NCBI GenBank assembly: GCA_963771465.1 | Contig: CAVYTU010000017.1 | Location: forward strand, 1,088,001-1,152,000 | DNA from: an uncultured delta proteobacterium | GTDB lineage: Bacteria; Desulfobacterota; Binatia; UBA9968 | Reading direction: 5' to 3' | DNA length: 64,000 nucleotides | Part shown: piece after piece, positions 7,743 to 52,141 of the stretch | Numbering within the stretch: the first letter of the stretch is position 1 | Layout: each line of letters starts with the position of its first letter | Program-made: the position numbers and the translations under genes | The notes under the pieces: model-generated | Seen by the model: the letters and a program-made list of their open reading frames with translations, nothing else | What the model was told of the DNA's origin: nothing | The model's database searches: none

Positions 7743-7770
7743 GGATCGCTTGCGGATCGTTAGTCACAGA

Positions 7771-8478: not shown

Positions 8479-8647
8479 TGTTAAACCCCCGCTCCTGAAA
8501 GCTCTTCGATATATCGCCTATCCATAAAACGACTGTCAATCACCATCGATTAACGATCGCGCAAGATCGAGCATGTTGTAACACATAAGCCTTGTGCCTG
8601 CCGCGTGGCGCTTGACACATCTGGCGCCGGCCATTAATGCTTTTAGC

Positions 8648-9085: not shown

Positions 9086-9114
9086 ATTTCGGACAAACCC
9101 AGGAGAAGTGCATC

Positions 9115-9891: not shown

Positions 9892-9957
9892 GATAGTTAA
9901 CCGCCAAGGGCGCAAAGAAGATCGATTCAATCTGGAGCGCCCCATTGAGGATCAGTA

Positions 9958-10515
9958 ATGGAGTTGCTTTCGACGTTTCATCTGAAGAAGTGGGTTAAAG
10001 ACAACGCGCAGTTGTTCAATCCACCGTTCCGGACCAATCAGTTGCTGGTTCATCACAAAGATTTTCTCGTCATGATCCTGCGTGGGCCGAACACTCGGTT
10101 GGACTTTCATATTCAACCCGGCGACGAGTTTTTCTATCAAGTGCAAGGCGAGATGGAGCTGGTGGTCAAGCCGCAAGGCGAACGGCGCCAAAGCGTGACG
10201 ATCAAAGAAGGGGAAATCTTCGTCTTGCCCGGTGGTACACCGCACTCGCCGCGGCGCTTTGAAAACACCTGGGGGTTGGTGATCGAACGCAAACGACGAC
10301 AAGAAGAGAAAGAAGAGTTCGCCTGGTACTGCGAAGAGTGCGACGAATTGGTGCTTTCGCGCATCGTCAATCAAGGTGATATCCCGTCGCAGGTGTCGGC
10401 GGTCTACGGTGAATTTAACGCCGACCCAAAAATTCGCACGTGCAAGTCTTGCGGTTATGTCTTTCCCGAAACGCCGATGGCGGAGCGGTTGAGCTTTCTC
10501 GAGCCGAAGCAGTAG
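9958..10515 (+). CDS. nbaC: 3-hydroxyanthranilate 3,4-dioxygenase
   Basis: GPNTRLDFH, EFFYQ, PHSP, GLVIERKR and rubredoxin-like CEEC...CKSC. Confidence 0.88.
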   Translation: MELLSTFHLKKWVKDNAQLFNPPFRTNQLLVHHKDFLVMILRGPNTRLDFHIQPGDEFFYQVQGEMELVVKPQGERRQSVTIKEGEIFVLPGGTPHSPRRFENTWGLVIERKRRQEEKEEFAWYCEECDELVLSRIVNQGDIPSQVSAVYGEFNADPKIRTCKSCGYVFPETPMAERLSFLEPKQ

Positions 10516-10539
10516 ACTTCAGGAGAGCCAGGAGGAGCG

Positions 10540-11085
10540 ATGACCAACAAATATCAAGAACAATTCGGCTATCCGATTGAGCGGACCCTGGGGAAAGTGC
10601 GCCCGGCCATGGTTCCTTGGATTCAGGATTTTATTCGCAATTCGCCGTTTTGTGTCATGGCCACCAGCAACTCCAACGGTGATTGCGATGCGTCACCCAA
10701 GGGCGGATTGCCAGGCTTTGTCAAAATCCTCAACGATAAGCAATTGTTCATCCCTGACGTTGCCGGTAACAAGCTATTTCACGGTTACGGCAACGTTGAG
10801 AGCAATGCCAAAGTAGGCTTGGTGTTTTTCATCCCTGGTCACAACAGCACAGTTAGGATCAACGGTAGGGTCAAGGTAATCGATAGGGACGAACTCAATA
10901 ATGTGCGGTTGGAGGTCAGCAATCCTGACGAGAAGGCGGAAGTTCTTCAGGGCCTGTTGCTCGATGTCGAAGAGTCCTACAGTCACTGCCCGCGCGCCCT
11001 AAAGTTCTCCAACCTGTGGGACGTCAATCAGATTAGCAAGAACACCGCCACGCCACCGGTCGGTGCGAAAGAATCGGGAATCTAA
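10540..11085 (+). CDS. Pyridoxamine 5'-phosphate oxidase-like FMN-binding protein
   Basis: DASPKGG.PGFV, PDVAGN, VRING, YSHCPRAL. Confidence 0.85.
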   Translation: MTNKYQEQFGYPIERTLGKVRPAMVPWIQDFIRNSPFCVMATSNSNGDCDASPKGGLPGFVKILNDKQLFIPDVAGNKLFHGYGNVESNAKVGLVFFIPGHNSTVRINGRVKVIDRDELNNVRLEVSNPDEKAEVLQGLLLDVEESYSHCPRALKFSNLWDVNQISKNTATPPVGAKESGI

Positions 11086-11101
11086 CACTACTTGCTAATT
11101 G

Positions 11102-12523
11102 ATGGGCAGTGAATTCTGTTTCACCAACGCTCGTGAGTTGACGCAACTGCTGCGTTCACGCGCTGTCTCGGCGCGCGAAGTCATGGCCGCATTTCTCGAC
11201 CAAATCGCGCGGCTCAATCCCAAGATGAACGCCATCGTCGCCAAGCTCGATGATGAGAAGTGCCTTGCGCTCGCCAACGAGGCCGACCGACGATTGTCTC
11301 GCGGTGACGACGTGGGACCGCTGCATGGCCTGCCGTTCGCTTTCAAAGAATTAGATGCCGCAGTTGGCTTTCCGATGACGCGCGGCTCGCCGATCTTTAA
11401 AGATTTCATGCCGAGCGAAGATTCAGTACTGGTCGAGCGCTTGCGTGGCGCCGGAGTGATCGCGATCGGCAAGACCAACGTTTCTGAGTTCGGCATGGGC
11501 TCGCATACCTACAACCAAGTTTACGGAACCACGCTGAATCCGTATGACTTTAGCAAAACCGCCGGCGGCTCTAGTGGCGGCGCAGGTGCTGCGCTTGCGG
11601 CTGGCCTGCTGCCATTAGCCAGCGGCAGCGATCTCGGCGGCTCGCTGCGCAATCCAGCCAACTTCAACAACATCGTCGCGTTGCGGCCGACCGTCGGCTT
11701 GGTGCCGTCCGCGCCAGTGGCGTTGCCGTTCTTGGGATTCACAGTCAAAGGACCGATGGCGCGCTCGGTCTCTGATGTTGCATTCTTACTGAGTGTCATG
11801 GCCGGCGCCGACCCGCGCGATCCCGCGGTTTATCCTTCCGATCCCACAGTGTTTGCACGGCCATTGGATCGCGATTTAAACAACGTGCGAGTCGCGTGGT
11901 GTCCCGACTTGGGCGGCTTACCGCTCGACCGACGGGTTCGTTCAGTCTTGGCCGCGCAACGTAAAACTTTCGCCGATCTTGGCTGCGTCGTCGAAGACGC
12001 CGTTCCCGATCTTAGCGGCGCGGACGAAGTATTTCTCACGCTGCGGGCGTGGCATTACTATCACACACTCGGTCCGTTGCTCGCCGAGCATCGCGGCCGT
12101 ATGAAAGACGAAGCGGTGTGGCAGATCGAGTCCGGTCGCGATCTCACTGGCGCTGAGATCGCCAAAGCGATGAGCCTACACGGCGAGCTGATGCAGCGCA
12201 TGCGCCGCTTTCAGGAGAAATATGAATTTGTCCTTTGTGCGGTCAATCAAGTACCGCCCTTCGATGCATCCATCGATTGGCCGCGCGAGATCGAAGGCGC
12301 AAAGATGGAGAACTATCTCGATTGGATGAAGTCGGCGTATTGGATTACTTCAACTTTTTGTCCGGCGCTTTCAGTGCCGGCGGGATTTACCGAAGACGGT
12401 TTGCCGGTCGGCATCCAGATAGTCGGCCGCTATCGTGACGACCTCGGTGTGCTACAGCTCGCCCACGCATTCGAGCAGATAACTGGTTTCGGCAAACGCC
12501 GGCCCGCGATTGTTCTAGGCTGA
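11102..12523 (+). CDS. Amidase signature family amidase
   Basis: GPLHGLPFAFKE, GGSSGG, GSDLGGSLRNP. Confidence 0.95.
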   Translation: MGSEFCFTNARELTQLLRSRAVSAREVMAAFLDQIARLNPKMNAIVAKLDDEKCLALANEADRRLSRGDDVGPLHGLPFAFKELDAAVGFPMTRGSPIFKDFMPSEDSVLVERLRGAGVIAIGKTNVSEFGMGSHTYNQVYGTTLNPYDFSKTAGGSSGGAGAALAAGLLPLASGSDLGGSLRNPANFNNIVALRPTVGLVPSAPVALPFLGFTVKGPMARSVSDVAFLLSVMAGADPRDPAVYPSDPTVFARPLDRDLNNVRVAWCPDLGGLPLDRRVRSVLAAQRKTFADLGCVVEDAVPDLSGADEVFLTLRAWHYYHTLGPLLAEHRGRMKDEAVWQIESGRDLTGAEIAKAMSLHGELMQRMRRFQEKYEFVLCAVNQVPPFDASIDWPREIEGAKMENYLDWMKSAYWITSTFCPALSVPAGFTEDGLPVGIQIVGRYRDDLGVLQLAHAFEQITGFGKRRPAIVLG

Positions 12524-12705
12524 TCTCGCAGTCTTATAACAAGCAGCGCTTTCGCGAAATCCATCAAGCAGACAAACTCTCAAAGTAGTCAATTCGTAAA
12601 CCAAACGTCCCTAATAAGTTGCTATTGGTTTCTGTCGACGATGACCCAATAGCAAATTCCTTTCAGATTCCATTCAGATAAGCGCCAGCGGCGCTCTACC
12701 TCTTC

Positions 12706-13797
12706 GTGGCATCAGTGTTGCTCCTTCATCTTCTGGTGGGGGAACACGTGGGAAGCCTGAAGCGATCTTACACTCTTATTCTTTTTCTTGTGAGTCTGAC
12801 GCTCTCGTGTATGCCGAGTAACGGCACGGCGGATTCAAGCCGCGATGAAGCGATTCAGCCGCTGGTCACGACTGCAGAGTTAGTTGTCGGTAGCAATCGT
12901 TTCGCCTTCGGCCTGTTAAAGGCCGGAAAGCTTATCGAACGCGCGGACGTGATGCTGCGTCTCTTTTCCCTCGATGGATCGGAAGCGAATCTTGCTGCCG
13001 AAGTCCAAGTTCCATATCAAACCGTTTCTAAAGTGAAACAAGAGCGTGCACTGCATCGCCATGCCGACGGCACGGCACATGTGCATGGGGACGACTCGAT
13101 GGTGCGCGGGCTTTACGTTGCGCAACTGAGTTTTTCTCGCGGCGGGGATTGGGGCGTCGAATTGCATGTGAGCCAGAGCAACGGCGCTGTTGAGCCGGTG
13201 CGTTTTGCGGTTACAGTACAAGACAACTCGCCAACGCCAGCGGTCGGTTCCGCTGCGCCCCGGAGCCGTAATCTCATCGCCCGCGATGTCAAGAATTTAC
13301 GTCAGATCGATACCAGCCCCAAGCCCGATGCTCGGCTGCACCAGGTCCGCATCGCCGACGCCATCGCCCAGCGCAAGCCGCAGTTAATTGTTTTCGCCAC
13401 GCCGCAGTTCTGTACGAGCCGCATGTGCGGACCGGTGGTCGATATCGTGCGGACGTTGCTTCCTGCTTTTGGTAAACGAGTGGCATTTACGCATCAAGAG
13501 ATCTGGCAGGACTTCGGCGAGAAGAAAATGTTTTCGACCGTCGAAGAGTGGCAGCTCGATACGGAGCCATGGGTATTTATCGTCGATGGTGGCGGAATCA
13601 TCCGGGCGAAGTTCGAAGGGCTCATGACCGCGCACGAGCTGGAAAGCAGTCTGCAGCAAATACTGACGCGCGTGCCGACCGGCCTCCGGCAGTCGTCGCG
13701 CCTCATTCCTTGGAAGGGAACAGTTATCGATGGAGAAAATAGATTCTCTGAGAAGAGCGGCGCAAAGCGGTCCGCCCGGTTGAACATCGTCCCATGA
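12706..13797 (+). CDS. Putative lipoprotein with a C-terminal thioredoxin-like domain
   Basis: Signal/lipobox LTLSC, His-rich HRHADGTAHVH, FATPQFCTSRMCGP, TEPWVFIVD; start uncertain. Confidence 0.7.
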   Translation: MASVLLLHLLVGEHVGSLKRSYTLILFLVSLTLSCMPSNGTADSSRDEAIQPLVTTAELVVGSNRFAFGLLKAGKLIERADVMLRLFSLDGSEANLAAEVQVPYQTVSKVKQERALHRHADGTAHVHGDDSMVRGLYVAQLSFSRGGDWGVELHVSQSNGAVEPVRFAVTVQDNSPTPAVGSAAPRSRNLIARDVKNLRQIDTSPKPDARLHQVRIADAIAQRKPQLIVFATPQFCTSRMCGPVVDIVRTLLPAFGKRVAFTHQEIWQDFGEKKMFSTVEEWQLDTEPWVFIVDGGGIIRAKFEGLMTAHELESSLQQILTRVPTGLRQSSRLIPWKGTVIDGENRFSEKSGAKRSARLNIVP

Positions 13798-41736: not shown

Positions 41737-42825
41737 TCAAGAGGACGGATGTGGCGGTGAGGCAAAGGGCAGGGCGGTCACGGTGGCCTGGATCGCGCCA
41801 TTCTCACGAGGGATGGAAAGAGCGGTCCCAGGCGACCAGAAGTTTCTGTGAATGTAACCGAGTGCGATGGCTCGGTTGAGTGCAATCGATGCGACGGAGC
41901 TGGTGATCTTGCCGACTTCGTTACCGGCGGTGACAATCGCATCGCCGGCGTTGGCTGGGGTATTGCCGTCGAGCAGTAGTCCGCAGAGTTTCCGGTTTAC
42001 ATGACCACGCGAGCGAATGCGTTCGACGACTTCTTGGCCGAGATAGCAACCTTTGGTGTAGCTATAGGAATTATCCAGGCCCACTTCGAGGAGCAAATTC
42101 TCTTCATTGAAATCGACGCCGTAACGCGGCATGCCGGCTTCGACGCGCAAGATATTCTGCGCCCGCGCGCCGACCCATGAGGCGCCGAGCTGTTCCAGTC
42201 GTTGAGCGAAGATTTGCAGGCAAGAATTTTGCACGATTAAATCAAAGCCATTATGACCCGTGCGATCGGCGCGCACGACGCACACCGGCGCGCCGTCGAA
42301 CTGAACTATCGTATGCCGATCGGGCTGCGCGGGCAGTTCGGTATTGGCAAAGAGTTTATCGAGGATGCTTTGCGCGCGCGGGCCTTGCAGCGACAGCATC
42401 GTCCATTGGTCGTTAGGATCGTTGATCTCGACTTCGTCGGCGACCAGGTAGCGATTGAGATGGGCGATAATTTTTTCTTTAAGCGGCTCCCAGAAATCCA
42501 AATAGATCGAGTTCATGGCGCAGAGCACGCGCACGTCAGCTATCACTCTGCCCTGCTGGGTGAGTATCGTAGCCTGCTGGCCGTCGAACATTTTCAACAA
42601 GCGGACATCGTTGGATAACATGCCTTGCAAGAAGGAAACGCGATCCGGTCCGGCGAATTGAAGCAGGGCGCGATGGGAGAGATCGAAAAGGCCGGCAGCG
42701 GTGCGGACCGATTGGTACTCGGCGGCAAAGTCGCCAAAGTGATCCGGCAAGCGCCAACCGTCTTGTTCGGCGAATACGGCGCCGTTTCGCTGGTGCAATT
42801 CCGTCAGTAGCGATTGCTTTGCCAT
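41737..42825 (-). CDS. ygfZ: Folate-binding GcvT/YgfZ family protein
   Basis: KGCYLGQE signature, FLQGMLSND, LRVEAG. Confidence 0.8.
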   Translation of the reverse strand: MAKQSLLTELHQRNGAVFAEQDGWRLPDHFGDFAAEYQSVRTAAGLFDLSHRALLQFAGPDRVSFLQGMLSNDVRLLKMFDGQQATILTQQGRVIADVRVLCAMNSIYLDFWEPLKEKIIAHLNRYLVADEVEINDPNDQWTMLSLQGPRAQSILDKLFANTELPAQPDRHTIVQFDGAPVCVVRADRTGHNGFDLIVQNSCLQIFAQRLEQLGASWVGARAQNILRVEAGMPRYGVDFNEENLLLEVGLDNSYSYTKGCYLGQEVVERIRSRGHVNRKLCGLLLDGNTPANAGDAIVTAGNEVGKITSSVASIALNRAIALGYIHRNFWSPGTALSIPRENGAIQATVTALPFASPPHPSS

Positions 42826-42947
42826 CAGTCCGGAAATATAGCGTCAAGCGTCGATGATGACAATCGCTCGTCGCGGTTAACCGATGATTGATTGATAGTT
42901 TCTCGGTGTGATAGAGAGTAATCATCAACTAAATACGGAGGTAGCAA

Positions 42948-43415
42948 ATGGCAGGACTCGAAGGGCAGAAGGCACCGGCGTTCACATTGGCGGGAAGCGA
43001 CGGTAAACAACACTCGCTCGCTGAATACGCCGGAAAAAACGTAATTCTGTGGTTTTATCCGAAAGACGACACCCCTGGCTGAACCAAGGAAGCGTGCGGG
43101 TTCCGCGACGCTATCGAAACCGTGACGAAAGCCAATACCATCGTCGTAGGTGTCAGCCCCGACGGCATTGATTCACACAACAGCTTTATCAGTAAATTCA
43201 ATTTACCGTTCGTATTACTGTCCGATCCACAGAAGGATGCCATGAAAGCCTACGGGGCTTGGGGACCGCGCAAAAATGCCCAAGGCGAAGTGTCCGAGGG
43301 CACGATTCGCTCGACGGCTTTGATCGGACCCGACGGCACAATCAAGAAACATTGGATTCCAGTCACTGACGCCGGAGCGCATCCGGCGGAAGTATTGGCT
43401 GTTCTCAACAACTAA
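42948..43415 (+). CDS. bcp: BCP/PrxQ peroxiredoxin, predicted selenoprotein (TGA 43080-43082 = Sec45), 155 aa
   Basis: GGAGG RBS; MAGLEGQKAPAFTL...FYPKDDTPG-TGA-TKEACGFRD, continuing in frame to GVSPD..SH..F..KFNLPF.LLSD; SECIS-like hairpin follows. Confidence 0.9.
43091..43112 (+). promoter_or_regulatory. Bacterial SECIS-like hairpin
   Basis: AGCGT-GCGG-[GTT]-CCGC-g-ACGCT; G-first loop 17 nt after the UGA. Confidence 0.75.
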
Positions 43416-43501
43416 GTCTGCTTAAACTCGATGTGGGGAGTAAGCCGCGTTCGTCTGGCGGCTTACTCCCTTATCGGATTCCTGGTTGCTCGCCAGATTC
43501 A

Positions 43502-44413
43502 ATGGCCAAGCTCAAAGCCGATATCGATCTTCACAAGTTAGAAATTTTTTATTGGGTCGCAGAGCATAAGAGTTTTTCGCAGGCCGCAGAACTGCTGTCG
43601 CTGCGCCAGCCGACGATTAGCGCGCATGTACAGGAATTGGAAACGGCGGTCGGCGGCAAGCTGCTCTATCGCATACCCGGAAAAGTCAGCCTCACGCCGC
43701 TAGGTCTCATGCTCGTCGAGCGGGCTAAGCATCTGCTCGCGTTCAAGCGCGAGACGGTGGCCGCCGTCGAGCAGTTTCACGGTACTCTGAGCGGTGAGCT
43801 TTGGGTCGGCGGCAGCAGCATCCCAGGAGAATACCTGTTGCCGCAAAAGTTGGGTGAGTTCGCAAAGAAATATCCTCACGTCAAACCGATCCTGCGTATC
43901 GGCGATTCCGCCGGTATCGTCGCCGATCTGTTAGACGGTAAAGTCGAGATCGGTTTTGTCGGTTTCAAAAGTGACGACGTGCGGCTTACTTTCGCAAAGA
44001 TTTGGGACGACGAGATGGTTATTGCCGTGCCGAAAGGTCATCCTTGGACCAAGCGCAAAGCCGTGAATGTGGCCGATCTGCGAACCGAGAAATTCATTTC
44101 GCGCGAGCATGGTTCCGGGACTCTCGATTCGATTCACCACCTGCTCGCCAAACGACGGCAGGCGGCCGATGACTTACTCAACATCTCCATGGAACTCGGC
44201 AGCACTGAGGCAGTCAAGGAAGCGTTAATGGCGGGATTCGGCTTTTCGATCCTGTCGCGCATCTCGATCCGCCATGAGTTGTCCGAAGGAACGATCGTCG
44301 AGGTGGCGCTCCGGGGACGGCAGATGAAACGAGATTTTTACGAAGTTTTCCATAGCCGTCGGCCCTTACACCCCATCGCTCAGGTGTTTCTTGAGTTTCT
44401 AAAGCTTCAATAA
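43502..44413 (+). CDS. LysR-family regulator, CysL-like / selenium-metabolism-associated type
   Basis: SFSQAAELLSLRQPTIS HTH; GGSSIPGEYLLP, REHGSGT, ELGSTEAVK. Confidence 0.85.
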   Translation: MAKLKADIDLHKLEIFYWVAEHKSFSQAAELLSLRQPTISAHVQELETAVGGKLLYRIPGKVSLTPLGLMLVERAKHLLAFKRETVAAVEQFHGTLSGELWVGGSSIPGEYLLPQKLGEFAKKYPHVKPILRIGDSAGIVADLLDGKVEIGFVGFKSDDVRLTFAKIWDDEMVIAVPKGHPWTKRKAVNVADLRTEKFISREHGSGTLDSIHHLLAKRRQAADDLLNISMELGSTEAVKEALMAGFGFSILSRISIRHELSEGTIVEVALRGRQMKRDFYEVFHSRRPLHPIAQVFLEFLKLQ

Positions 44414-44452
44414 TCCTTCGATTTTTGCCAAAAAATACCTTTGAGCTCTTAC

Positions 44453-44489
44453 ATAGCTGATACCTATTTAGTATATAGGTAGAATAGAT
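44453..44489. promoter_or_regulatory. LysR-type T-N11-A boxes upstream of the sulfoxide synthase
   Basis: ATAG-N7-CTAT at 44453-44467 and ATAG-N7-AGAT 22 nt downstream; overlapping palindrome TACCTAT-N7-ATAGGTA. Confidence 0.55.
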
Positions 44490-44507
44490 CAGCGGTTGGG
44501 AGCGATT

Positions 44508-45866
44508 ATGGCACTACCGTTAAGACGAAGCGGCGAGAGCGGAATCGATCTTCTGCGCGATAGGTTTCGCGCCGCATGGTCGCGCTCGGATGAGATCTTT
44601 GCCATTGTGCCGAGCGGTCAGTTGTTGGCGCAGCCGATTGTCTGGCGCCATCCGTTTATTTTCTACATCGGTCATCTGCCGGCCTTCTCGTGGAACCAAA
44701 TCTGCGGCGAAGTTCTCCGCTGGCCGTCATTCAATTCTTATTTCGACGATCTGTTTTGCCGCGGCATCGATCCCGACGTGGACACCGGCGAATGTCATTG
44801 GCACCCGGAGGTTCCGGATCGCTGGCCAAGTCTTGCGGAAACTATCTATTATCGAGACCGAGTACGGGATGCTATCCTCGATTCGGTCGAAGCGCTCGGC
44901 TATTGCCGCTCCGATGATATCATGGGCCAAGGCGGCCGTGTTTTACAGATGGTGCTGGAGCACGAATATATGCATCAGGAGACTTTGCTCTACATGATGC
45001 AGCGACTGCCCATCGCGCAAAAAATCCGGCCGCGCGCTCCTGTCCGATACTTATTTCAACCCTGGCGCGCTTCCCAATCGGTGCGCATCCCAAAAGGTCA
45101 AGCGCGTTTGGGCGCCAGTTTCGATGAATTGGGCTTCGGCTGGGACAACGAATTCGACCAGATCGTCGTCGACGTGCCGGCGTTCACCATCGACTCTTTG
45201 CCCGTTACCAATGGACAGTTCAGCGAATTCGTCACATCGGGGGCTTATGATGATCCGCGCCATTGGCGGCCGGAGGATTGGCGCTGGAAGAATTTGGAAA
45301 ATAAGCGCCACCCTAGCTGCTGGGTCGAGCAAGCGGACGGGTGGTTTTATCGCTCGATGTTCGATGTCTTGCCGCTCGGTCAAGTTGCCAGCTGGCCGGT
45401 CTATGTAAGCTTGGCCGAAGCTCGCGCTTACGCCGCCTGGCGCGGCAAACGATTACCAAGCGAAGCCGAGTATCAGCGCGCGGCATTTTATGGTCCAGAC
45501 GAGCGGGAGACGCCGTATCCTTGGGGTGACGATGCGCCTGGGCGCCAGCATGGCAACTTCGAATTTACCTCGTGGTCGCCGACTCCGGTCGGATCGAGTC
45601 CAGCGGGGGCGAGCCGTTGGGGTGTTCATGAACTGGTCGGCAATGGTTGGGAATTGACCGATAGCCCCTTTGCGCCACTGCCGGGTTTCACGCCTTACAT
45701 GGCCGGTTATCCGGACTACTCAAAAGATTTTTTCGACGGCAAGCATTTCGTCGTTAAAGGCGCGTCCTGGGCGACCGACGCCGGCCTCTTGCGGCCGAGC
45801 TTTCGCAATTGGTATCAAGCGCACTATCCCTATGTGTTTGCCAAGTTTCGATGCGTATGGAATTAG
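44508..45866 (+). CDS. Non-heme iron sulfoxide synthase (DinB + FGE-sulfatase domains), Egt1/OvoA-like
   Basis: RHPFIFYIGH, RGIDPDVD..ECHWHPEVP, EHEYMHQET (3-His site), RLPSEAE, GNGWE, YPDYSKDFFDGKH, RNWYQ.HYPY. Confidence 0.85.
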   Translation: MALPLRRSGESGIDLLRDRFRAAWSRSDEIFAIVPSGQLLAQPIVWRHPFIFYIGHLPAFSWNQICGEVLRWPSFNSYFDDLFCRGIDPDVDTGECHWHPEVPDRWPSLAETIYYRDRVRDAILDSVEALGYCRSDDIMGQGGRVLQMVLEHEYMHQETLLYMMQRLPIAQKIRPRAPVRYLFQPWRASQSVRIPKGQARLGASFDELGFGWDNEFDQIVVDVPAFTIDSLPVTNGQFSEFVTSGAYDDPRHWRPEDWRWKNLENKRHPSCWVEQADGWFYRSMFDVLPLGQVASWPVYVSLAEARAYAAWRGKRLPSEAEYQRAAFYGPDERETPYPWGDDAPGRQHGNFEFTSWSPTPVGSSPAGASRWGVHELVGNGWELTDSPFAPLPGFTPYMAGYPDYSKDFFDGKHFVVKGASWATDAGLLRPSFRNWYQAHYPYVFAKFRCVWN

Positions 45867-45893
45867 AACAATTTCGTAAGATGGAGGCGCGCC

Positions 45894-46175
45894 ATGAAAG
45901 CGACCTGGGAAAATCAGATTCTCGCCGAGTCGAACCAGACGGTCGTCGTCGAGGGTAATCATTATTTTCCGCCGGAATCGATCCGCAAAGAATGCTTCAA
46001 AGCGAGTGAAACTCACAGCACCTGTCCTTGGAAAGGAGTTGCCAACTACTATCATGTTCAGGTCAGCGACAAGGTCAATCAAGACGCCGCGTGGTATTAT
46101 CCAGAACCCAAAGAGGCGGCAAAGTCGATCAAGAATCATGTCGCCTTCTGGCGCGGTGTAAAGGTGAGCGAGTAA
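45894..46175 (+). CDS. DUF427 domain protein
   Basis: VVVEGNHYFP, STCPWKG.A.YY, AAWYYPEPK, VAFW.GV. Confidence 0.9.
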   Translation: MKATWENQILAESNQTVVVEGNHYFPPESIRKECFKASETHSTCPWKGVANYYHVQVSDKVNQDAAWYYPEPKEAAKSIKNHVAFWRGVKVSE

Positions 46176-46188
46176 GAGCGCATCGCGA

Positions 46189-46995
46189 ATGTCGGTGCAA
46201 ACCTTGCGAATCGCTTCCTGCATGGCCGAGAATACCGATGAGCTGTGCCGCTCAATCGTCAATATCATTGAAAGAGAGGTCGGCATCCCGACGGAATACG
46301 TCACCGAGGTGCCGTGGCAAGAACGCGAACGGTTATTCGACCTGGGCGAGATTCAAATTCTTTGGCTGTGCGGCTTGCCCTATGTGAATAAAGCCGATCT
46401 CGCTGACAGTCGCATGGAATTGCTTGCCGTGCCGGTACCAGCCGGCGCACGCTATCAGGCGCGGCCGGTGTATTTTTCCGATGTCGTGGTCCGCCGGGAG
46501 AGTGTCTTCGAGTCGTTCGTCGATCTGCGCGGCGCGTCATGGGCTTACAACGAGCCGCGCTCGCATTCCGGTTTCAACGTAGTACGCGCATACCTGGCCG
46601 AAATCGGTGAGTTAGAGGGCTTCTTCGGCAGCGTCATTGAATCGGGTGCGCATACAAATTCGATTGAATTAATCTTATCCGGCGTCATCGATGGCGCGGC
46701 GATCGATAGCACTGTCTTGGAATGGTTGTCGTCCCAGCGCGCCGATTTGGACGACCAACTGCGCGTTATCGATACCATCGGCCCGAGCCCGATCCCGCCC
46801 TGGGTCATCTCCACGAGATTGCCTGGGAACTTGCGCTCTCAAGTCCGCCAGCTGTTGCTCAATCTACAATTGAACCCACTCGGGCGGGGCGCCCTCGGAC
46901 GCGCACAGCTTGCGAGATTTAGCCTTGCCCATGACCGGGACTACGACCCGATTCGTCGCATGGCGCGCAAGGCAGAGGCGGTTTTGCTGGCCTAA
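46189..46995 (+). CDS. PhnD/SsuA/transferrin-family binding protein without a signal peptide
   Basis: WLCGLPY, YFSDVVV, DLRG..AYNE..SHSG, SGAH.NS, DGAAIDS, D.DYD.IR. Confidence 0.8.
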   Translation: MSVQTLRIASCMAENTDELCRSIVNIIEREVGIPTEYVTEVPWQERERLFDLGEIQILWLCGLPYVNKADLADSRMELLAVPVPAGARYQARPVYFSDVVVRRESVFESFVDLRGASWAYNEPRSHSGFNVVRAYLAEIGELEGFFGSVIESGAHTNSIELILSGVIDGAAIDSTVLEWLSSQRADLDDQLRVIDTIGPSPIPPWVISTRLPGNLRSQVRQLLLNLQLNPLGRGALGRAQLARFSLAHDRDYDPIRRMARKAEAVLLA

Positions 46996-47062
46996 TTTCA
47001 TATGATAAGAACCTCATCATGGGCGCGATCGCGCCGCTAACACGACAAGGAGAAGAGGGAAA

Positions 47063-47530
47063 ATGGCGAGCTTAGAGGGCAAAAAAGCGCCGGCATTTAA
47101 TTTGGAAGGTAGCGACGGCAAAAAACATTCGTTGGACGACTACAAAGGCAAAACCGTCGTCATGTTTTTCTATCCCAAGGACAGCACCCCTGGCTGAACC
47201 AAGGAAGCTTGCGGGTTTCGCGAGCGCAATAATCAGCTGAAAAAACTAAACGCGGTGGTGCTCGGCGTGAGCAAAGATAACATTCCGTCACACAACAAAT
47301 TCGCTGAGAAGTACGATTTGCCGTACGTCCTGCTGTCGGACCCGAATGCCGAAGTCATGAAGAAATATTCAGCCTTCGGCAAAAAAATGATGTACGGCAA
47401 GGAAGTGCAGGGGACGATTCGCTCGACGGTGGTGATCGGCCCGAAAGGCGACGTGATCAAGCAATGGAATCCCGTTAAAAAGGCCGAAACGCATCCCGAA
47501 GAGGTGCTCGCCTTTATCAAGAGCAGTTAA
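47063..47530 (+). CDS. bcp: Second BCP/PrxQ peroxiredoxin, predicted selenoprotein (TGA 47195-47197 = Sec45), 155 aa
   Basis: AAGGAG upstream; MASLEGKKAPAFNL...FYPKDSTPG-TGA-TKEACGFRE...GVSKD..SH.KF..KY.LPY.LLSD. Confidence 0.9.
47207..47225 (+). promoter_or_regulatory. Bacterial SECIS-like hairpin
   Basis: GCTTGCGG-[GTT]-TCGCGAGC, an 8-bp stem with two G-U pairs and the loop 17 nt after the UGA. Confidence 0.75.
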
Positions 47531-47572
47531 GCCTGCCGGTTATTTGATTCCTGAATAATTGCACAAAGTGAA

Positions 47573-47622
47573 TTGACATAGGTTTTCTATCAGTTATAAA
47601 CACTCCTATCGAAATGGCCTAT
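47573..47622 (+). promoter_or_regulatory. Sigma70-like promoter with a downstream LysR-like box
   Basis: TTGACA-N16-TATAAA; ATCG-N7-CTAT at 47608-47622. Confidence 0.45.
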
Positions 47623-47642
47623 CCACTGGACAGGGGGGAGCT

Positions 47643-48740
47643 ATGAATAGACGGGATTTTCTTAAACAAGGTCTGACGGTTTCAGCTGGGGTCGCGCTCG
47701 GCGGCTTGCCCAAGTTTACCGGCGTGGGTCATGCTGATGATCCGACAAAATGGCGCACCTTCGAAGTGATCACGACGATCGAGGTCAAAGATCCCGTGGG
47801 TGGTGTGCGCACATGGATTCCGGTGCCATTGACGAACAATACCGATTATTTCAAACGGGAACCGGATAGCTGGACGGGAAATTTCAAAGCTGCCCGTGCC
47901 GTGCAGTACGACAAATATGGAACGGGAATGGTTTTCGCTGAATGGGCGCCGGGCGAGAAAGCGCCGCTGCTCGAGGTGAAGAGCCGCTTCATGACCCGCG
48001 ACCGGGCGATCGATGTGAACGCGAAACCCACCGGCGCCGCGAAAGAAAACCCGGCCGTGCTCAATTACTTCCGTCAACCTTCAAAGCTTATCCGCACGGA
48101 CGGTATCGTCGCCACAACATCGAAAGGCATTGTTATGGGCTTGAAGAGTGACGCCGACAAGGGCAAGGCGATCTACGAATGGATCGTCGATAACACTTTT
48201 CGCGACGCCAAGGTTAAGGGCTGCGGTATTGGCGATATCTCCACCATGCTCGAAAGCGGCTATTTGGGCGGCAAATGCGCTGATTTGAATGCGCTCTATG
48301 TCGGCCTTGCTCGCGCCGCTGGCTTGCCCGCGCGCGATGTTTACGGCGTGCGTGTCGCGGCCTCCTCGGAATTTAAAAGTCTGGGCCGAGCCGACGATAT
48401 CACCGGAGCGCAACATTGCCGCGCCGAAGTTTATCTCAACGGCTACGGCTGGACGCCGGTGGATCCGGCTGACGTGCGCAAAGTGGTGCTCGAAGAAAAT
48501 TTGCCGGGCGAACAATTGCCGCTGACCGACCCGAAAGTGAAACGGGCGCGGGAAAAACTATTCGGCGCCTGGGAAATGAACTGGTTGCCGTATAATTACG
48601 GCCACGACATCAAGCTGCCCAACTCCAAGCTGCAGGAAGTCGCTTTCTTCATGTACCCACAGTTGGAAACCGCCAATGGTCGGAGAGATAGCCTTGACCC
48701 GGCGAATTTCAAATACACGATCAAGTCGAAAGAAGTTTAA
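47643..48740 (+). CDS. Tat-exported transglutaminase-like cysteine enzyme
   Basis: MNRRDFLK twin-arginine signal; GKCADLN, QHCRAE and VDPAD (Cys-His-Asp triad). Confidence 0.88.
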   Translation: MNRRDFLKQGLTVSAGVALGGLPKFTGVGHADDPTKWRTFEVITTIEVKDPVGGVRTWIPVPLTNNTDYFKREPDSWTGNFKAARAVQYDKYGTGMVFAEWAPGEKAPLLEVKSRFMTRDRAIDVNAKPTGAAKENPAVLNYFRQPSKLIRTDGIVATTSKGIVMGLKSDADKGKAIYEWIVDNTFRDAKVKGCGIGDISTMLESGYLGGKCADLNALYVGLARAAGLPARDVYGVRVAASSEFKSLGRADDITGAQHCRAEVYLNGYGWTPVDPADVRKVVLEENLPGEQLPLTDPKVKRAREKLFGAWEMNWLPYNYGHDIKLPNSKLQEVAFFMYPQLETANGRRDSLDPANFKYTIKSKEV

Positions 48741-48765
48741 GCTCGAACTCTGGACGAAAACTTAC

Positions 48766-48801
48766 ACGAGGCCCCCACAATCTGGGGGCCTCGTCATTTT
48801 T
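48766..48801 (+). terminator. Rho-independent terminator
   Basis: ACGAGGCCCCCA-caatc-TGGGGGCCTCGT followed by cattttt. Confidence 0.8.
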
Positions 48802-48854
48802 GGCAGCGAATGCTGAAAGGGTGGCACTCCATGCTGTGCACATCACAACCGTTG

Positions 48855-49712
48855 CTATCGGCTCAGTGCTTCTTCGATCGCACGCGCAACATAGACGTGG
48901 GTGAGATGGGCGCGATATTCAGACGAGCCGTTGATGTCTTCGATGACTTCCACGTTGCGCGTCGACTCGGCGGCGGCTTGTTCGATTAGTGCCGTATCCA
49001 GTTTCTTTCCCGTTAGCAATTGTTCAGTTCTCTCTGGCCGATAGGCTTTGTCCGTCACGCCGGTTATGCCGATCGCCGCGCGGCTGCAAACTCCGCCATT
49101 ATCAACAGCTAAACGCACTGCCACGCCGGTCACGGCAAATCCCGAAGAGCGTGGCGCGGCTTTTTGATAAGCCGTCTTGTCGCTCCCGGTGACCGGCACT
49201 CTGATAGCGGTCACGATTTCATCCGGTTCTAACACGCTCATCAATAGGCCGAGAAAAAATTCATCGCACTTGACCCAGCGTTCGCCGCTGGGACCGTAGA
49301 CTTTGATCTCGGCATCGAGAGCCATCATCGTTGCCGGCCAATCGCCGGCGGGATCGGCGTGAGCGACACTGCCACCGAGGGTGCCACGGTTGCGTACTTG
49401 CACGTCGGCGATGGTGGTCGCGGTTTGCGGTAGCAGAGGGCATTTGGCTTTGAGCAGATCGGAATATTCGATTTGTTCGTGGGTGACCAGGGCGCCGATG
49501 ACGAGATCGTTGCCGTCCTGCTTGATCGTATCGAGGCCGGGAATACGGCCGATGTCGACAACATAGGCGGGCTTTGACAAGCGCATCTTCATCAATGGCA
49601 GCAAGCTTTGCCCGCCGGAAAGTATTTTTACGTCGTCTTTGTGTTCCGAGAGAAATCTAACCGCGTCGCTTAAAGAACGGGGCGCGTAATAGTCGAAAGC
49701 ACCGGGAATCAT
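48855..49712 (-). CDS. Xanthine dehydrogenase family FAD-binding subunit (CoxM-like)
   Basis: SGGQSLLPLMKMR, QVRNRGTLGGS..HADPAGD. Confidence 0.92.
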   Translation of the reverse strand: MIPGAFDYYAPRSLSDAVRFLSEHKDDVKILSGGQSLLPLMKMRLSKPAYVVDIGRIPGLDTIKQDGNDLVIGALVTHEQIEYSDLLKAKCPLLPQTATTIADVQVRNRGTLGGSVAHADPAGDWPATMMALDAEIKVYGPSGERWVKCDEFFLGLLMSVLEPDEIVTAIRVPVTGSDKTAYQKAAPRSSGFAVTGVAVRLAVDNGGVCSRAAIGITGVTDKAYRPERTEQLLTGKKLDTALIEQAAAESTRNVEVIEDINGSSEYRAHLTHVYVARAIEEALSR

Positions 49713-49714
49713 GG

Positions 49715-52141
49715 CTAGAAAGTCCTCCGCTCTTTTTCGGGATTGTGATTGACCAGACGCCAGACCACTTCCGGCGTGATCGGCAGTTCACAAACCTTCA
49801 CACCGAACGGTTGCAGCGCGTCTTCGACGGCGCTGGCAATGGCGGCGGGTGAGGGGATCGCCGCGCCTTCACCGGCGGCTTTTTGGCCGAGGGAAGTGAA
49901 AGGTGAAGGCGACGGTTGATGGATAACCTCGATGCGCGGTGTCTCGGCGGTGGAGCATTTGCCGTAATCCAAGTAAGTGATCGTCAATGGTTGGCCGTCC
50001 GGGCTGTACATGAAGCCTTCACCGAGAGCGATGGCGATACCATGTGCCGCTGAGCCGTAGACTTGGCCGTTGACGACGTCGGGATTGATCACCGTGCCGT
50101 TGTCGCCGACGATCAGATAGCGCAACACATGCACCGAGCCGGTGTTCTTGTCGACTTCGACAACCGCCGCGTGGGCGCCGGCGGAAAAAGTAAACTGCGC
50201 CCGCACCCTACGGTCAGCGCCGGGTACGATATTCGGCTTGGCATGCGGAAACGTGTAGTAGTGCGTCGCTTCCAGTCCGGCTTCCATGTCATCGGGAATC
50301 AGATGCTGATTGTTGTAAGCGATGCGGCCCAATTCGGCGAAAGTGATTTGTTTCGCCGCCGCGCCGGGCACTTTCACGACACTGTCTTCGATAACCAACT
50401 CGGACGGATCGACTTTGAGGTTATACGCCGCAAGCTTGAGAATTTTCTCGCGCAACTTGGTCGCCGCGCCGTGAATCGCGCCGATATCGTAGAGATGAAA
50501 ATTATTGCCGCTGTTGGCGGCCGCCACACCCCAGGACGACAGATCGCTATCGAAGGGAATGCTGGTGCTGATTTTATCCGGCGTCGCGCCGAGTATGTCG
50601 GCGGCGACCTGTGCGGTCGTGGTCTCATGCGCCTGGCCGCAATTGGGCGAGCCTAAATGAAGCGTCAGAGTGCCGTTCTTTTCCAATTTGATTTTTGCCC
50701 CGTTGACGCCGCCGGAGCCGGGCGGCTCCTTCATCTCGGGAAAGATCGCCATGTCGCGCGCCGCATTGCGCCCGCCGGGCTCGACGCCAATGACGATGCC
50801 GATACCCATGAGCTTGCCCTGTGCGCGGCCGTTTTTCTGCTCTTCTCGGAGCTTGTCGTAGTCGATTTTTTCCAAGAGGGTTTTTAACAGACCGGGATAA
50901 TCGCCGCTGTCGTAAATGTTGCCGCTGATGGTGCTGTAAGGCATTTCATTGGCCTGGATCAAATTTTTGCGCCGCACTTCGATGGGGCTTAAGTTAAGCG
51001 CCTGAGCGACCCGGTCCATCATCCGTTCCCAGATAAAACACATGCCGGGTTTGCCGATGCCGCGGTTGGGTATGACCGGACACTTGTTGGTCACCACCGC
51101 GTTGCCTTCCATGTAAATGGCTGGCGTCTTGTACGTGTTCGACAAATTGTTGAGCTTGTTGGTGAAGTGAATCGTCAGCGTGCTGATCGAGCCGCCGACG
51201 TCGTCGTATTCTTTGAACTTGAGACCGAGCACCGTGCCGTCGTTTTTCACCGCGGCTTCGGCTTCAACTTCCTGGGCGCAAGCATGGCCGCCGGCCATCA
51301 TATGTTCAGTGCGGTCTTCGATCCATTTTACCGGCCGGCCGGTTTTCATCGCTAGCAGCGATACCAGCACGACGTACTTACGGATCAAATGAATCTTCTG
51401 GCCGAAACCGCCGCCGACATCGGGAATGATCACGCGGACATCTTGCAGACCGAGCGCTTCGCGCAGCCCGTCGTAAATGACCTCCGGCACTTGTGCCGTA
51501 ACCCAGACGGTCAGACGCTTGCTGGCGGCGTCATAGGACGCGATCACCACGAACGGTTCGAGCGGCGTCGAGCTGTATCGGTGAATTTTCAAAGTCTCTT
51601 TGACGACCCGGTCGGCGGACTTAAACGCCGCGTCGATGTCGCCGTATTGCAAAGAGCCGGTCCACGCGAGGTTCGTGCCGAGCTCGTCGAACAATGCCGC
51701 CGATGACGGCTTGATCGCTTCATGCACGTCGACGTTAGCCCGCAGCGGTTCGTAGTCGACTTGGATCAATTCGAGCGCGTCTTCCGCCGTGCCGCGGTCT
51801 TTGGCCGCCACCGCGCCAATCGGTTCGCCGACATAGCGGACTTTTTCCACCGCGCCGGCGTATTCGTCAATCGGTCTTTTCAAACCGGCCGCATAACGGC
51901 CGGGCTTGAACGGCTGGGTCAGCTTTTTCACGTCGTCCGGCGTGATCGTCGCGAAGACGTTGGGATTCTTCAACGCTTCGGCGGGATCGACGGAAATAAT
52001 TTTCGCGTGCGCGTGGGGGCTGCGCAAAATCATCGCCTGGAGCATGCCGGGCATGGTGAAATCGTCGGTGAACAGACCTTTACCGGTGACGTGACGCGGG
52101 CCTTCTTTGCTGCGCGAACGATTGCCGACGAACTTAGCCAT
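49715..52141 (-). CDS. Xanthine dehydrogenase family molybdopterin subunit
   Basis: LRSPHAHA, DVGGGFGQK, PNRGIG, GQAHET, KAAGEG. Confidence 0.92.
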   Translation of the reverse strand: MAKFVGNRSRSKEGPRHVTGKGLFTDDFTMPGMLQAMILRSPHAHAKIISVDPAEALKNPNVFATITPDDVKKLTQPFKPGRYAAGLKRPIDEYAGAVEKVRYVGEPIGAVAAKDRGTAEDALELIQVDYEPLRANVDVHEAIKPSSAALFDELGTNLAWTGSLQYGDIDAAFKSADRVVKETLKIHRYSSTPLEPFVVIASYDAASKRLTVWVTAQVPEVIYDGLREALGLQDVRVIIPDVGGGFGQKIHLIRKYVVLVSLLAMKTGRPVKWIEDRTEHMMAGGHACAQEVEAEAAVKNDGTVLGLKFKEYDDVGGSISTLTIHFTNKLNNLSNTYKTPAIYMEGNAVVTNKCPVIPNRGIGKPGMCFIWERMMDRVAQALNLSPIEVRRKNLIQANEMPYSTISGNIYDSGDYPGLLKTLLEKIDYDKLREEQKNGRAQGKLMGIGIVIGVEPGGRNAARDMAIFPEMKEPPGSGGVNGAKIKLEKNGTLTLHLGSPNCGQAHETTTAQVAADILGATPDKISTSIPFDSDLSSWGVAAANSGNNFHLYDIGAIHGAATKLREKILKLAAYNLKVDPSELVIEDSVVKVPGAAAKQITFAELGRIAYNNQHLIPDDMEAGLEATHYYTFPHAKPNIVPGADRRVRAQFTFSAGAHAAVVEVDKNTGSVHVLRYLIVGDNGTVINPDVVNGQVYGSAAHGIAIALGEGFMYSPDGQPLTITYLDYGKCSTAETPRIEVIHQPSPSPFTSLGQKAAGEGAAIPSPAAIASAVEDALQPFGVKVCELPITPEVVWRLVNHNPEKERRTF

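Follow-up and report, generated by a model that had tools for sequence, protein, structure and literature searches.

Several described systems resemble parts of the locus reported here: the EgtB-IV and Egt1-type (EgtD-fused) sulfoxide synthases, the senA-senB-senC selenoneine cluster, the egtB-egtD-DUF427 operons, the selenocysteine (Sec) peroxiredoxins (PrxU and the Prx-like selenoproteins), the AioX and ArrX periplasmic sensors of arsenic oxyanions (PMC5908839) and the LysR_Se regulators. The LysR_Se subfamily was defined by Lin et al. in 2015; according to the available text of that paper (PMC5322559), it is confined to SelD-containing organisms, and available selenium leads its archaeal member HrsM to repress Cys isoenzymes, selenophosphate being the proposed effector. 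DUF427 proteins are co-encoded with 5.7% of all non-heme-iron sulfoxide synthase (NHISS) genes, with no role assigned (Table 1 of PMC13674229). The present analysis concerns a window of 64,000 nucleotides from an uncultured delta proteobacterium of the class Binatia (GenBank assembly GCA_963771465.1, contig CAVYTU010000017.1, positions 1,088,001 to 1,152,000), in which an island spanning positions 42948-48740 was studied. Searches of its open reading frames with Pfam and NCBIfam profiles recovered the seven co-directional genes of the initial annotation, all on the + strand, which encode a PrxQ/BCP-type peroxiredoxin (PrxA), a LysR_Se regulator, an EgtB-type NHISS, a DUF427 protein, an AioX/ArrX-like binding protein, a second peroxiredoxin (PrxB) and a transglutaminase-like protein. 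The selenium context of this island is real and wider than the initial annotation saw; the synthase looks ordinary and its selenium-linked setting is new. With middling confidence, we read the island as a LysR_Se-controlled sulfur (ergothioneine) branch that would lie beside Sec/Cys peroxiredoxins and complement selenoneine.

Conserved synteny, which the initial annotation regarded as decisive for its proposal, was found far beyond this genome. Our locus scan, with one genome per species, retrieved 48 loci encoding relatives of the synthase, and the island genes surround it in 33 of them (L011-L039, L041-L043 and L052), with synthase identities of 58-75%. The genomes behind these loci, 33 with the island and 15 without it, are the basis of the genome counts given below. 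All seven genes are found in the window order in eight loci (L011, L012, L023, L025, L032, L035, L037 and L038). The remaining islands are cut by contig ends, carry the regulator before PrxA (L015, L017-L022) or are devoid of DUF427 (L017, L018, L022) or of the binding protein (L027, L029, L031, L036, L041, L043); LysR is present at 30 of the 33 loci. L032, from the unpublished genome G022, contributes one row to the counts, and none of the claims rests on it. Furthermore, a scan with the transglutaminase-like protein revealed a compact form, LysR-Prx-synthase-transglutaminase, in L142, L146 and L154, with synthase identities of 57-59%. The titles of the island records name Binatia, Thermodesulfobacteriota/Syntrophobacteraceae, "delta proteobacterium", Chloroflexota, Verrucomicrobiota and others, labels to which little weight was given because several records are short contigs of metagenome-assembled genomes (MAGs). 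Among 151 genomes sampled from the class of the window, close copies (at least 67% identity) are confined to its own genus. Since the island is nevertheless widely spread elsewhere, this distribution suggests a block shared by horizontal transfer. Metagenomes from 17 studies, of soil, rhizosphere and groundwater, contain the stretch itself. A literature search retrieved no published description of the island, within a scope that did not extend to the supplements of PMC11030361 and PMC13674229, which may classify the clade; neither peroxiredoxins nor LysR are mentioned in the available text of PMC13674229.

The synthase gene (44508-45866, + strand) encodes a protein of 452 aa that carries an N-terminal DinB_2 domain (PF12867, 4.5e-09) and a C-terminal FGE-sulfatase domain (PF03781, 3.6e-44). 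Its reading frame opens upstream, at a TTG codon (44496), and ATG 44508 was taken as the start because the homologues are 452 aa long. Its NCBIfam scores lie below the cutoffs of ovoA_Nterm (TIGR04344, 246 versus 400), SenA (NF041186, 227.2 versus 420) and EgtB (TIGR03440, 226.1 versus 360). The EgtD-adjacent sister enzymes also miss every NCBIfam cutoff (223-261 with TIGR03440), and these low scores are therefore a gap in the models rather than a sign of novelty. Sequence searches against solved structures gave the best matches with EgtB-IV (8vih, 3e-57), EgtB-I (4x8b, 7e-51) and OvoA (8khq, 2e-42), and weaker ones with OvsA (4e-28), SenA (5e-26) and EgtB-II (1e-20). When 1.84 billion representatives were searched exhaustively, 29,101 matches were obtained at E<=0.001; among the best 150 of them, 93 are full-domain and 20 of these 93 are fused to a histidine methyltransferase resembling the EgtD of the genome itself. 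Pfam searches on 13 representatives identified Methyltransf_33 in seven and a pyridoxal-phosphate (PLP) aminotransferase-class domain in three. Two proteins, P0128 (1271 aa) and P0217 (1142 aa), combine a PLP aminotransferase-class domain, a sulfoxide synthase and EgtD in a single polypeptide and would amount to entire ergothioneine pathways in one protein.

A FastTree phylogeny of 134 rows (SH-like supports only; L024 left out as an incomplete sequence) grouped 25 island rows and their 50% representative in one monophyletic clade (SH-like 99). The sister of this clade is an EgtD-adjacent enzyme from Rokubacteria (SH-like 99), and the next group consists of 12 representatives that include eight EgtD fusions (SH-like 93). 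On this tree, the island clade is nested among EgtD-fused and EgtD-adjacent EgtBs and not on the SenA/OvsA branch; the phylogeny that the initial annotation had proposed as a check thus makes its term "Egt1-like" a fair description, EgtD fusions being among the nearest representatives. EgtD directly adjoins the synthase gene in 14 of the 15 non-island loci but in none of the 33 island loci (within 6 kb). Compared with EgtB-IV and Egt1-type synthases, the island enzyme shares the fold, the His triad, the catalytic Tyr, the Arg/Tyr pair and the Asn-Trp motif. However, it is only about 35-50% identical to them, its gene lies between Sec/Cys peroxiredoxin genes together with lysR_Se, EgtD is never adjacent or fused to it, and it differs from them by a clade-specific cysteine and loop (see below) and by a score under the TIGR03440 cutoff.

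The active site was mapped by HMMER alignment to OvoA, with the OvoA structure as described in the available text of PMC10696552. The iron-ligand triad H56/H152/H156 aligns with OvoA H71/H162/H166 and the catalytic Y401 with OvoA Y406. Ahead of the first iron ligand, R47 and Y53 take the places of OvoA R62 and Y68, which hold the cysteine substrate (PMC10696552). All these residues, as well as N434-W435, are invariant across 25 aligned island and sister enzymes, and the cysteine-binding Arg and Tyr are both lacking in the SenA of the same genome. According to the available text of Kayrouz et al. (PMC11030361), an Asn followed by an aromatic residue (W/F) characterizes hercynine acceptors and an Ala histidine acceptors. 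Since the cysteine binders and N434-W435 are retained, the alignment predicts hercynine and cysteine as substrates, i.e., EgtB-type chemistry. An assignment to OvoA would not agree with the score (246 versus 400), with W435 in place of the Ala and with the absence of a methyltransferase domain; an assignment to SenA would not agree with the score (227.2 versus 420) and with the absence of SenB and SelD from the island.

Profile searches of the island proteins found neither senB nor selD nor egtD inside the island, as the initial annotation had stated. However, the SenB-independent route to a selenium compound that it derived from this absence is not supported, because the same genome encodes SenA, SenB, EgtD and selD on other contigs. 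Within about 8.5 kb, contig C7 carries genes for SenB (TIGR04348, 401.7 versus 300), SenA (NF041186, 482.2 versus 420) and EgtD (TIGR03438, 298.3 versus 290.9), and selD is located on contig C14. The prevalence of SenB among island genomes, the retained cysteine binders, the nesting among EgtBs and the existence of islands with two Cys peroxiredoxins (L015, L019) also speak against such a route. The selenoneine locus (L067, G000:C7:66000-84000, positions 4673-13145) contains senB, senA, a GlcNAcase-like gene, genes for an alpha/beta hydrolase and an FGE-only protein, two unassigned genes and egtD; a fusion of betaine-type ATP-binding cassette (ABC) permease and binding protein is encoded nearby. 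The only full-length NHISS genes of the genome are senA and the window synthase gene and, judged by these profiles, the latter is the sole EgtB-type candidate in a genome that also has the canonical selenium route. SenB (E<=1e-60) was detected in 27 of the 33 island genomes and in none of the 15 others, a contrast that is confounded by relatedness. EgtD (E<=1e-40) is present in 29 of the 33 island genomes and in all 15 non-island genomes, and egtD lies beside senB, on the same contig within a few kb, in the island genomes G001, G003, G007, G020, G032 and G042. As to the co-occurrence with selenium genes that the initial annotation proposed to examine, SelD is common in island genomes (over the cutoff in 29 of 33, with no match in one, G032) but it does not discriminate them from the others (11 of 15). 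Overall, the island synthase and the senA-senB-senC cluster share an enzyme superfamily and, presumably, a hercynine pool, and co-occur in this genome as in the 27 island genomes. They differ in that the synthase scores 227 for a SenA cutoff of 420, matches the solved SenA at only 5e-26 and retains cysteine binders that the SenA of its own genome lacks, and in that the island is devoid of a glycosyltransferase and of a SelD homologue.

The two UGA-recoded peroxiredoxins announced by the initial annotation were confirmed. The prxA (42948-43415, + strand; AhpC-TSA 2.8e-36) and prxB (47063-47530, + strand; AhpC-TSA 5.5e-39) genes each encode 155 aa, and PrxB is 57% identical to PrxA. In both, the only in-frame TGA is codon 45 (43080-43082 in prxA, 47195-47197 in prxB), the peroxidatic position of PrxQ/BCP enzymes, within the motif YPKD-x-TPG-U-TKEAC; the Cys located five residues further (Cys50 of PrxA) is likely the resolving residue. 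PrxA scores 155 bits with the PrxQ model (cutoff 260), and the Prx proteins only reach 40-48 bits with the PrxU model (cutoff 270). Like PrxU and the Prx-like selenoproteins, they have a UGA for the peroxidatic residue, followed by a candidate hairpin, and homologues with Cys instead; they differ from them in being of the PrxQ/BCP type with a U-x4-C motif and in being paired in one island, where they flank an EgtB operon. Among the 48 related loci, all in-frame stops within Prx genes align at codon 45. Four isolated stops in matches to the NHISS, DUF427 or PhnD-like proteins (L032, L043, L029 and L017) do not fall at conserved positions and have the appearance of assembly errors or pseudogenization, and our search for Sec codons in the synthase, DUF427 and binding protein found none. 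The Prx forms of the related loci include 32 with Sec (TGA) and 20 with Cys (TGC/TGT); beyond this codon, the next nine bases are TGCGGGTTC in 31 of the 32 Sec forms and in none of the 20 Cys forms. Furthermore, identity at third codon positions in Sec forms is 0.70 in the 12 codons downstream of the site versus 0.51 upstream, whereas it is 0.52 on both sides in Cys forms.

Candidate selenocysteine insertion sequence (SECIS) hairpins begin 11-12 nt beyond the UGA (GCGUGCGGGUUCCGCGACGC, 43091-43112, + strand, 11 nt past the UGA of prxA; GCUUGCGGGUUUCGCGAGC, 47207-47225, + strand, in prxB) and are near-invariant in Sec forms only. Their folds (-13.2 kcal/mol, z -0.43 for prxA; -12.0 kcal/mol, z -0.77 for prxB) are not significant alone, and RNAalifold on 11 post-UGA stretches gave a 5-bp consensus hairpin with zero compensatory or covarying pairs. 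The argument for these hairpins comes from the sequence constraint confined to Sec forms. The genome encodes the machinery needed, with selA (614 bits), selB (359 bits) and selD (376 bits), all over their cutoffs, in a selA-selB-selD operon on contig C14, and a tRNA-Sec (76.7 bits versus a cutoff of 47). On these grounds, which are those of sequence comparison, the UGA codons of both genes are taken as selenocysteine codons, and their recoding is more than chance. The selD gene (G000:C14:200711-201637) itself contains one in-frame TGA, as does SelD in most island-bearing genomes. With the window counted, TGA was found in 24 of the 30 PrxA that could be typed and in nine of the 25 typed PrxB, the 16 others being Cys forms. 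The 22 islands in which both were typed comprise 11 Sec/Cys (PrxA/PrxB), six Sec/Sec including the window, three Cys/Sec and two Cys/Cys pairs (L015 and L019); 14 of the 22 thus mix one Sec and one Cys form. A third, distant Prx-like gene (35-38% identity), whose stop aligns with codon 45, lies upstream of the island in L017 (2231-2602) and L018 (2248-2619) and probably encodes another Sec peroxiredoxin.

The regulator gene (43499-44413, + strand; 304 aa, HTH_1 and LysR_substrate domains) belongs to the selenium metabolism-associated LysR family, with 264.3 bits on NF040786 (cutoff 250), and its genome has SelD. A candidate LysR box of 26 bp, ATAGCTGATACCTATTTAGTATATAG (ATAG-N7-CTAT-N7-ATAG; 44453-44478, + strand), is located 30 nt ahead of the synthase start codon, is kept in 22 of 27 aligned upstream regions and is overlapped by a promoter-like sequence, CTGATA-17-TAGAAT (44457-44485, + strand). 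Across the 6.9 Mb genome, the full box was matched at this site alone. The half pattern ATAG-N7-CTAT is present at 17 genomic sites, of which a single one lies in the island, and the whole-genome search found neither pattern near the sen, egtD or sel loci. A relaxed half-site search for further LysR targets gave six genomic matches, none of them convincing. The box is a putative binding site of LysR_Se. The similar T-N11-A boxes that had been reported before three transcription units were not recovered: one conserved box exists, in front of the synthase gene only, and the ATAG box is absent ahead of prxA and the transglutaminase gene, each of which is preceded by conserved sigma-70-like elements of its own. 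As in the LysR_Se/HrsM regulation of Methanococcus described in the available text of PMC5322559, a regulator over the NF040786 cutoff is associated with Sec and Cys versions of one enzyme in the island, and the genome has sulfur and selenium versions of one antioxidant pathway. Here, however, the putative targets are antioxidant genes rather than hydrogenase or sel genes, and both peroxiredoxins of the window are Sec forms. These facts would fit a choice, made in response to selenium, between the selenium-based and the sulfur-based antioxidants.

The synthase, DUF427 and binding protein genes are separated by only 27 and 13 nt. In the interval 42700-48900, the only terminator-like site of the + strand is the intrinsic terminator-like hairpin that closes the island (48766-48794, a 12-pair stem followed by CATTTTTGGC), and prxB may therefore be read through from the synthase operon. 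An inverted repeat 3′ of prxA (43435-43470, + strand; GGGGAGTAAGCCGC...GCGGCTTACTCCC), possibly a weak terminator or a processing hairpin, was not scored by the terminator scan because its T-run is weak. An Rfam scan of the island matched no RNA family. On this basis, the selenium-associated antioxidant module would consist of about five transcription units: prxA with its own promoter, lysR_Se, the synthase-DUF427-binding protein operon behind the box, prxB, and the transglutaminase gene with its own consensus promoter. In the mechanism that we propose, the synthase, an Fe(II)/O2 enzyme, would join L-cysteine to C2 of hercynine, and a C-S lyase encoded elsewhere would then release ergothioneine. 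Hercynine would come from the single EgtD encoded beside senA and senB on C7; since there is only one EgtD, one hercynine pool would feed both the selenium branch (SenA/SenB, to selenoneine) and the sulfur branch. LysR_Se would control the level at which the sulfur branch, and perhaps PrxB, is present, the peroxiredoxins would remove peroxides, and the handling of selenium or oxyanions, rather than C-S bond chemistry, would be the task of the transglutaminase-like and AioX-like proteins. From the comparisons made here we infer the substrates and product of the synthase, the binding and effector of the regulator, the logic of the switch and the roles of the DUF427, binding and transglutaminase-like proteins.

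The DUF427 gene (45894-46175, + strand; 93 aa, PF04248 1.3e-33) follows the synthase gene directly. Its product matches PDB 3djm (2.8e-10), and DUF427 has a beta-tent fold like those of MsrB and GFA, as described in the available text of PMC4287342. Its Cys44, in the motif C-P/H-W-K-G, is invariant, and all 14 motif matches have a Cys codon for it. A single-sequence fold (pLDDT 42.7) was unusable, and a prediction of the synthase-DUF427 complex scored 0.00, which counts neither way. DUF427 also occurs divergently beside EgtB-EgtD pairs in L053-L055. The island thus resembles the egtB-egtD-DUF427 operons listed in Table 1 of PMC13674229 by a DUF427 gene directly 3′ of a NHISS gene, but it lacks EgtD and the betaine-type importer and includes peroxiredoxins, LysR_Se, and AioX-like and transglutaminase-like proteins.

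The next gene (46189-46995, + strand; 268 aa, Phosphonate-bd 8.6e-39) encodes the protein initially annotated as leaderless and PhnD-like. It is indeed leaderless and predicted to be cytoplasmic, as neither this protein, which has no room for a signal peptide, nor its family has one; its best solved relatives are the oxyanion sensors AioX (6esk, 8.8e-25) and ArrX (6x6b, 3.1e-24). Six of the seven AioX pocket residues are kept (C61, Y95, S125, S127, H155 and D173 for AioX C106, Y131, S161, S163, H192 and D210), including C61, the counterpart of the arsenite-binding Cys106, and these six are invariant in 60 of 60 distinct family members; AioX Tyr88 is replaced by Trp (W43). It therefore resembles the AioX/ArrX sensors by matches of about 1e-24 and by a pocket with the arsenite-binding Cys, but differs from them by this Tyr-to-Trp change, by the lack of a signal peptide and by the lack of a two-component partner, no histidine kinase or response regulator having been found near it in the island and related loci. 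It differs also by its occurrence beside three NHISS types, in the island, in L080 (within 3 kb of SenB and SenA) and in L092. The last locus (4340-7813, a betaproteobacterial MAG) groups a 4Fe-4S ferredoxin, a leaderless AioX-like protein, a type II EgtB (TIGR03440, 583 versus 360) and a small methyltransferase. Over 55 loci, the neighbors of the family are mostly unrelated and heterogeneous. Atlas look-ups for the binding and transglutaminase-like proteins repeated their Pfam families and gave nothing further.

The last gene (47643-48740, + strand; 365 aa) encodes a transglutaminase-like or cysteine-protease-like protein (Transglut_core, PF01841, 2.4e-19) with a twin-arginine N-terminus (MNRRDFLK). 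TAT_signal (PF10518) is matched with E 0.0098 and 16.3 bits, under the cutoff of 22.7, and all 27 sequences compared keep R3 and R4. C194, C212, H258, C259 and D274 are also invariant in the family, and C212/H258/D274 would form a Cys-His-Asp triad. The AlphaFold model (pLDDT 83.7) has as its best fold match 3isr, a putative cysteine protease (TMq 0.54-0.57), and the fold search retrieved generic transglutaminase or cysteine-protease matches only. Our survey of 80 loci encoding this family revealed that it lies beside selD, selA or selB in 20 of them. Island-type contexts account for 22 of the 80 loci; the other contexts include LysR_Se (305.6 versus 250)-SelD (316.8 versus 125)-transglutaminase-family-4 glycosyltransferase in seven loci of Methylomirabilota/Rokubacteria, selD directly after the transglutaminase gene in 12 loci of Alphaproteobacteria (five with selA-selB divergent upstream), selB upstream in one (L185), a LysR_Se-like neighbor only in eight, and EgtD and NHISS genes downstream in one (L161). 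About 58 of the 80 loci are devoid of any NHISS gene. The runs with a glycosyltransferase (L150:1882-6510, and also L145, L155, L168, L169, L174 and L175) may be selenosugar-type loci; their glycosyltransferase reaches 342 with Glyco4_Geo_Pelo, under the cutoff of 400, and just 102 with SenB. In L152, L159, L179, L180 and L183 (about 4001-6100 in each), the transglutaminase-selD pair is divergent from selA-selB, and the gene therefore lies inside the core selenocysteine locus of these Alphaproteobacteria.

Co-occurrence at the genome level agrees with these contexts. Among 151 genomes sampled from the order of L157, the transglutaminase-like protein is encoded in seven, SelD in ten and both in six, i.e., SelD is found in six of the seven carriers versus four of the 144 non-carriers; as these genomes are related, the contrast is no formal test. 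The carrier without SelD is a fragmented assembly, and in the four genomes with SelD but not the protein, SelD is lower-scoring, long and fused; cultured carriers exist (Rhodoplanes; L157). In L041 and L043, the slot of the transglutaminase gene after PrxB is occupied by a putative selenate ABC importer (TIGR04553, 341-343 versus 250; PhnC and two PhnE). In two of the compact islands, the genes that follow (L146:5203-8188, L154:5222-6181) encode ArsS (rSAM_SeCys, 449 versus 300), a VTT/DedA protein and TIGR04283 and TIGR04282 proteins of "arsenosugar biosynthesis". Judged by its gene neighborhoods, the transglutaminase-like family is selenium-linked; our literature search found it tied to selenium only by one row of a STRING table in the available text of PMC5322559. 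Together with the Sec peroxiredoxins, LysR_Se and the importer variants of L041 and L043, this association sustains the selenium link of the island that the initial annotation had proposed.

On the other side of the closing hairpin, the island is flanked by genes of the - strand (48855-52141) for the FAD-binding and large subunits of a molybdoenzyme of the xanthine dehydrogenase/carbon monoxide dehydrogenase family; the same FAD subunit comes after the island in L041. This molybdoenzyme matches the selenium-dependent hydroxylase models weakly (47-185 bits, far under the cutoffs). Upstream, a GcvT/YgfZ-like gene (41737-42825, - strand) is divergent from prxA, and the intergenic region that they share (42826-42947) contains an ATATA-CCGTCAAG...TTGACAAT element conserved among close relatives.

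Several observations weigh against a LysR_Se-controlled ergothioneine branch. The synthase does not reach the curated EgtB cutoff (226 versus 360), and the island encodes neither a C-S lyase nor EgtD, which was found within 6 kb at none of the 33 island loci. Four of the 33 island genomes lack EgtD at E<=1e-40, two of them being large (G005, 6.7 Mb; G027, 7.5 Mb), SelD fails to separate island from non-island genomes, and the contrast seen for SenB is confounded by relatedness. The clade has its own C84 (24 of 26 rows) and an inserted loop, D90-VDTGECHWH-P100 (C96, H97 and H99 in 26 of 26), directly after I87. This residue aligns with OvoA V102, which contacts the cysteine substrate through its backbone (available text of PMC10696552); C84 and the GECHWHP loop could signal a different donor. 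The PrxB of the window is a Sec and not a Cys form, and the simple logic of a sulfur backup operon fails here, unlike in the 11 Sec/Cys islands. The binding of LysR_Se to the box and the sensing of selenium are, in this island, inferences only. Finally, a hint of expression comes from RNA-library contigs of four soil studies, in which each of the seven genes is partly represented: one of 815 nt (one mismatch) spans prxB with its UGA and runs into the transglutaminase gene, and others bridge synthase-DUF427 and DUF427-binding protein. These contigs may, however, contain DNA carry-over and cannot show single transcripts, operon structure or regulation.

Other explanations of the island have to be weighed against these facts. 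Its genes could lack any biochemical coupling, independent oxidative-stress and selenium-homeostasis genes having been co-transferred or co-inherited, and the EgtB-type gene being simply the ergothioneine synthase gene of the lineage. The separate conserved promoters of prxA and of the transglutaminase gene, the variable accessory genes (DUF427 or the binding protein lost, the transglutaminase gene replaced by an importer in L041 and L043), the heterogeneous contexts of the binding protein in most of 55 loci and the frequency of transglutaminase loci devoid of NHISS genes would all agree with this. However, the compact form recurs (L142, L146, L154) at a synthase identity of merely 57-59%, the order is maintained across records labelled as several phyla, the unique box lies exactly ahead of the synthase gene, and none of the 33 island synthases keeps the otherwise near-universal EgtD neighbor, which argues for a selected rearrangement; we regard an uncoupled island as unlikely. 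Alternatively, and with a still lower probability, the synthase would be a selenium enzyme and produce selenoneine, or some other selenohistidine, independently of SenB, its product working with the Sec peroxiredoxins and its donor being free selenocysteine or a selenium species delivered by the AioX-like protein, by DUF427 or by its own Cys/His loop. All the other conserved parts of the island are selenium-associated (Sec Prx, LysR_Se, the transglutaminase gene found beside selD, the importer of L041 and L043), the Cys pocket of the AioX-like protein could suit pyramidal selenite, C84 and the loop lie by the donor site, and the Arg/Tyr pair would presumably bind selenocysteine as well as cysteine; fungal relatives of Egt1 make selenoneine in vivo. 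Against this, SenA and SenB are already encoded in the same genomes (this one and 27 of 33), the synthase is nested outside the SenA/OvsA branch, Cys/Cys islands (L015, L019) and an island genome without a SelD match (G032) exist, and the leaderless binding protein, being also located beside a type II EgtB in L092, is not specific to selenium enzymes. Free selenocysteine is not known to be a normal metabolite pool in bacteria.

The same loop is also central to the idea that the synthase makes a different thio-imidazole, either because it fits another thiol (gamma-glutamylcysteine, a peptide or protein-bound cysteine) or because DUF427 and the binding protein replace the lyase or methyltransferase steps. 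C84 and D90-P100 follow the counterpart of a cysteine contact, profile searches of the island found no C-S lyase encoded near the synthase, new NHISS products were found as late as 2026 (available text of PMC13674229), and DUF427, with its MsrB-like beta-tent fold (available text of PMC4287342), accompanies 5.7% of NHISS genes. Nevertheless, the hercynine and cysteine binders are the same as in the EgtD-linked sisters, the EgtB-IV and AshA pathways likewise borrow their lyase from elsewhere (available text of PMC13674229), and DUF427 and the binding protein are each absent from several islands; this is the least probable of the explanations considered. Returning to the sulfur branch controlled by LysR_Se, a wider model can be put forward, although only tentatively: LysR_Se would switch between a selenium set (selenoneine made by SenA/SenB, and Sec-PrxQ) and a sulfur set (ergothioneine made by the EgtB-type enzyme, and Cys-PrxQ) that draw on one hercynine pool, and the transglutaminase-like proteins, found in the selA-selB/selD loci of Alphaproteobacteria and Methylomirabilota, and the AioX-like protein, a possible selenite binder, would be unrecognized and widely conserved parts of the selenium handling of bacteria.

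Although the biosynthetic routes to ergothioneine and to selenoneine have been described, the way in which the sulfur and selenium versions are balanced in bacteria has not. The island places an EgtB-type enzyme together with a regulator whose family, in methanogens, governs the switch between Sec and Cys isoenzymes and, because island genomes also carry senA/senB and a single egtD, this balance is directly testable in them. This work also corrects the inference that a "missing" senB means a new selenium route. Overall, it nominates the transglutaminase-like proteins, putative Tat (twin-arginine translocation) substrates, as a new gene family of selenium metabolism, as well as a cytoplasmic family of AioX-like binding proteins with an invariant Cys pocket.

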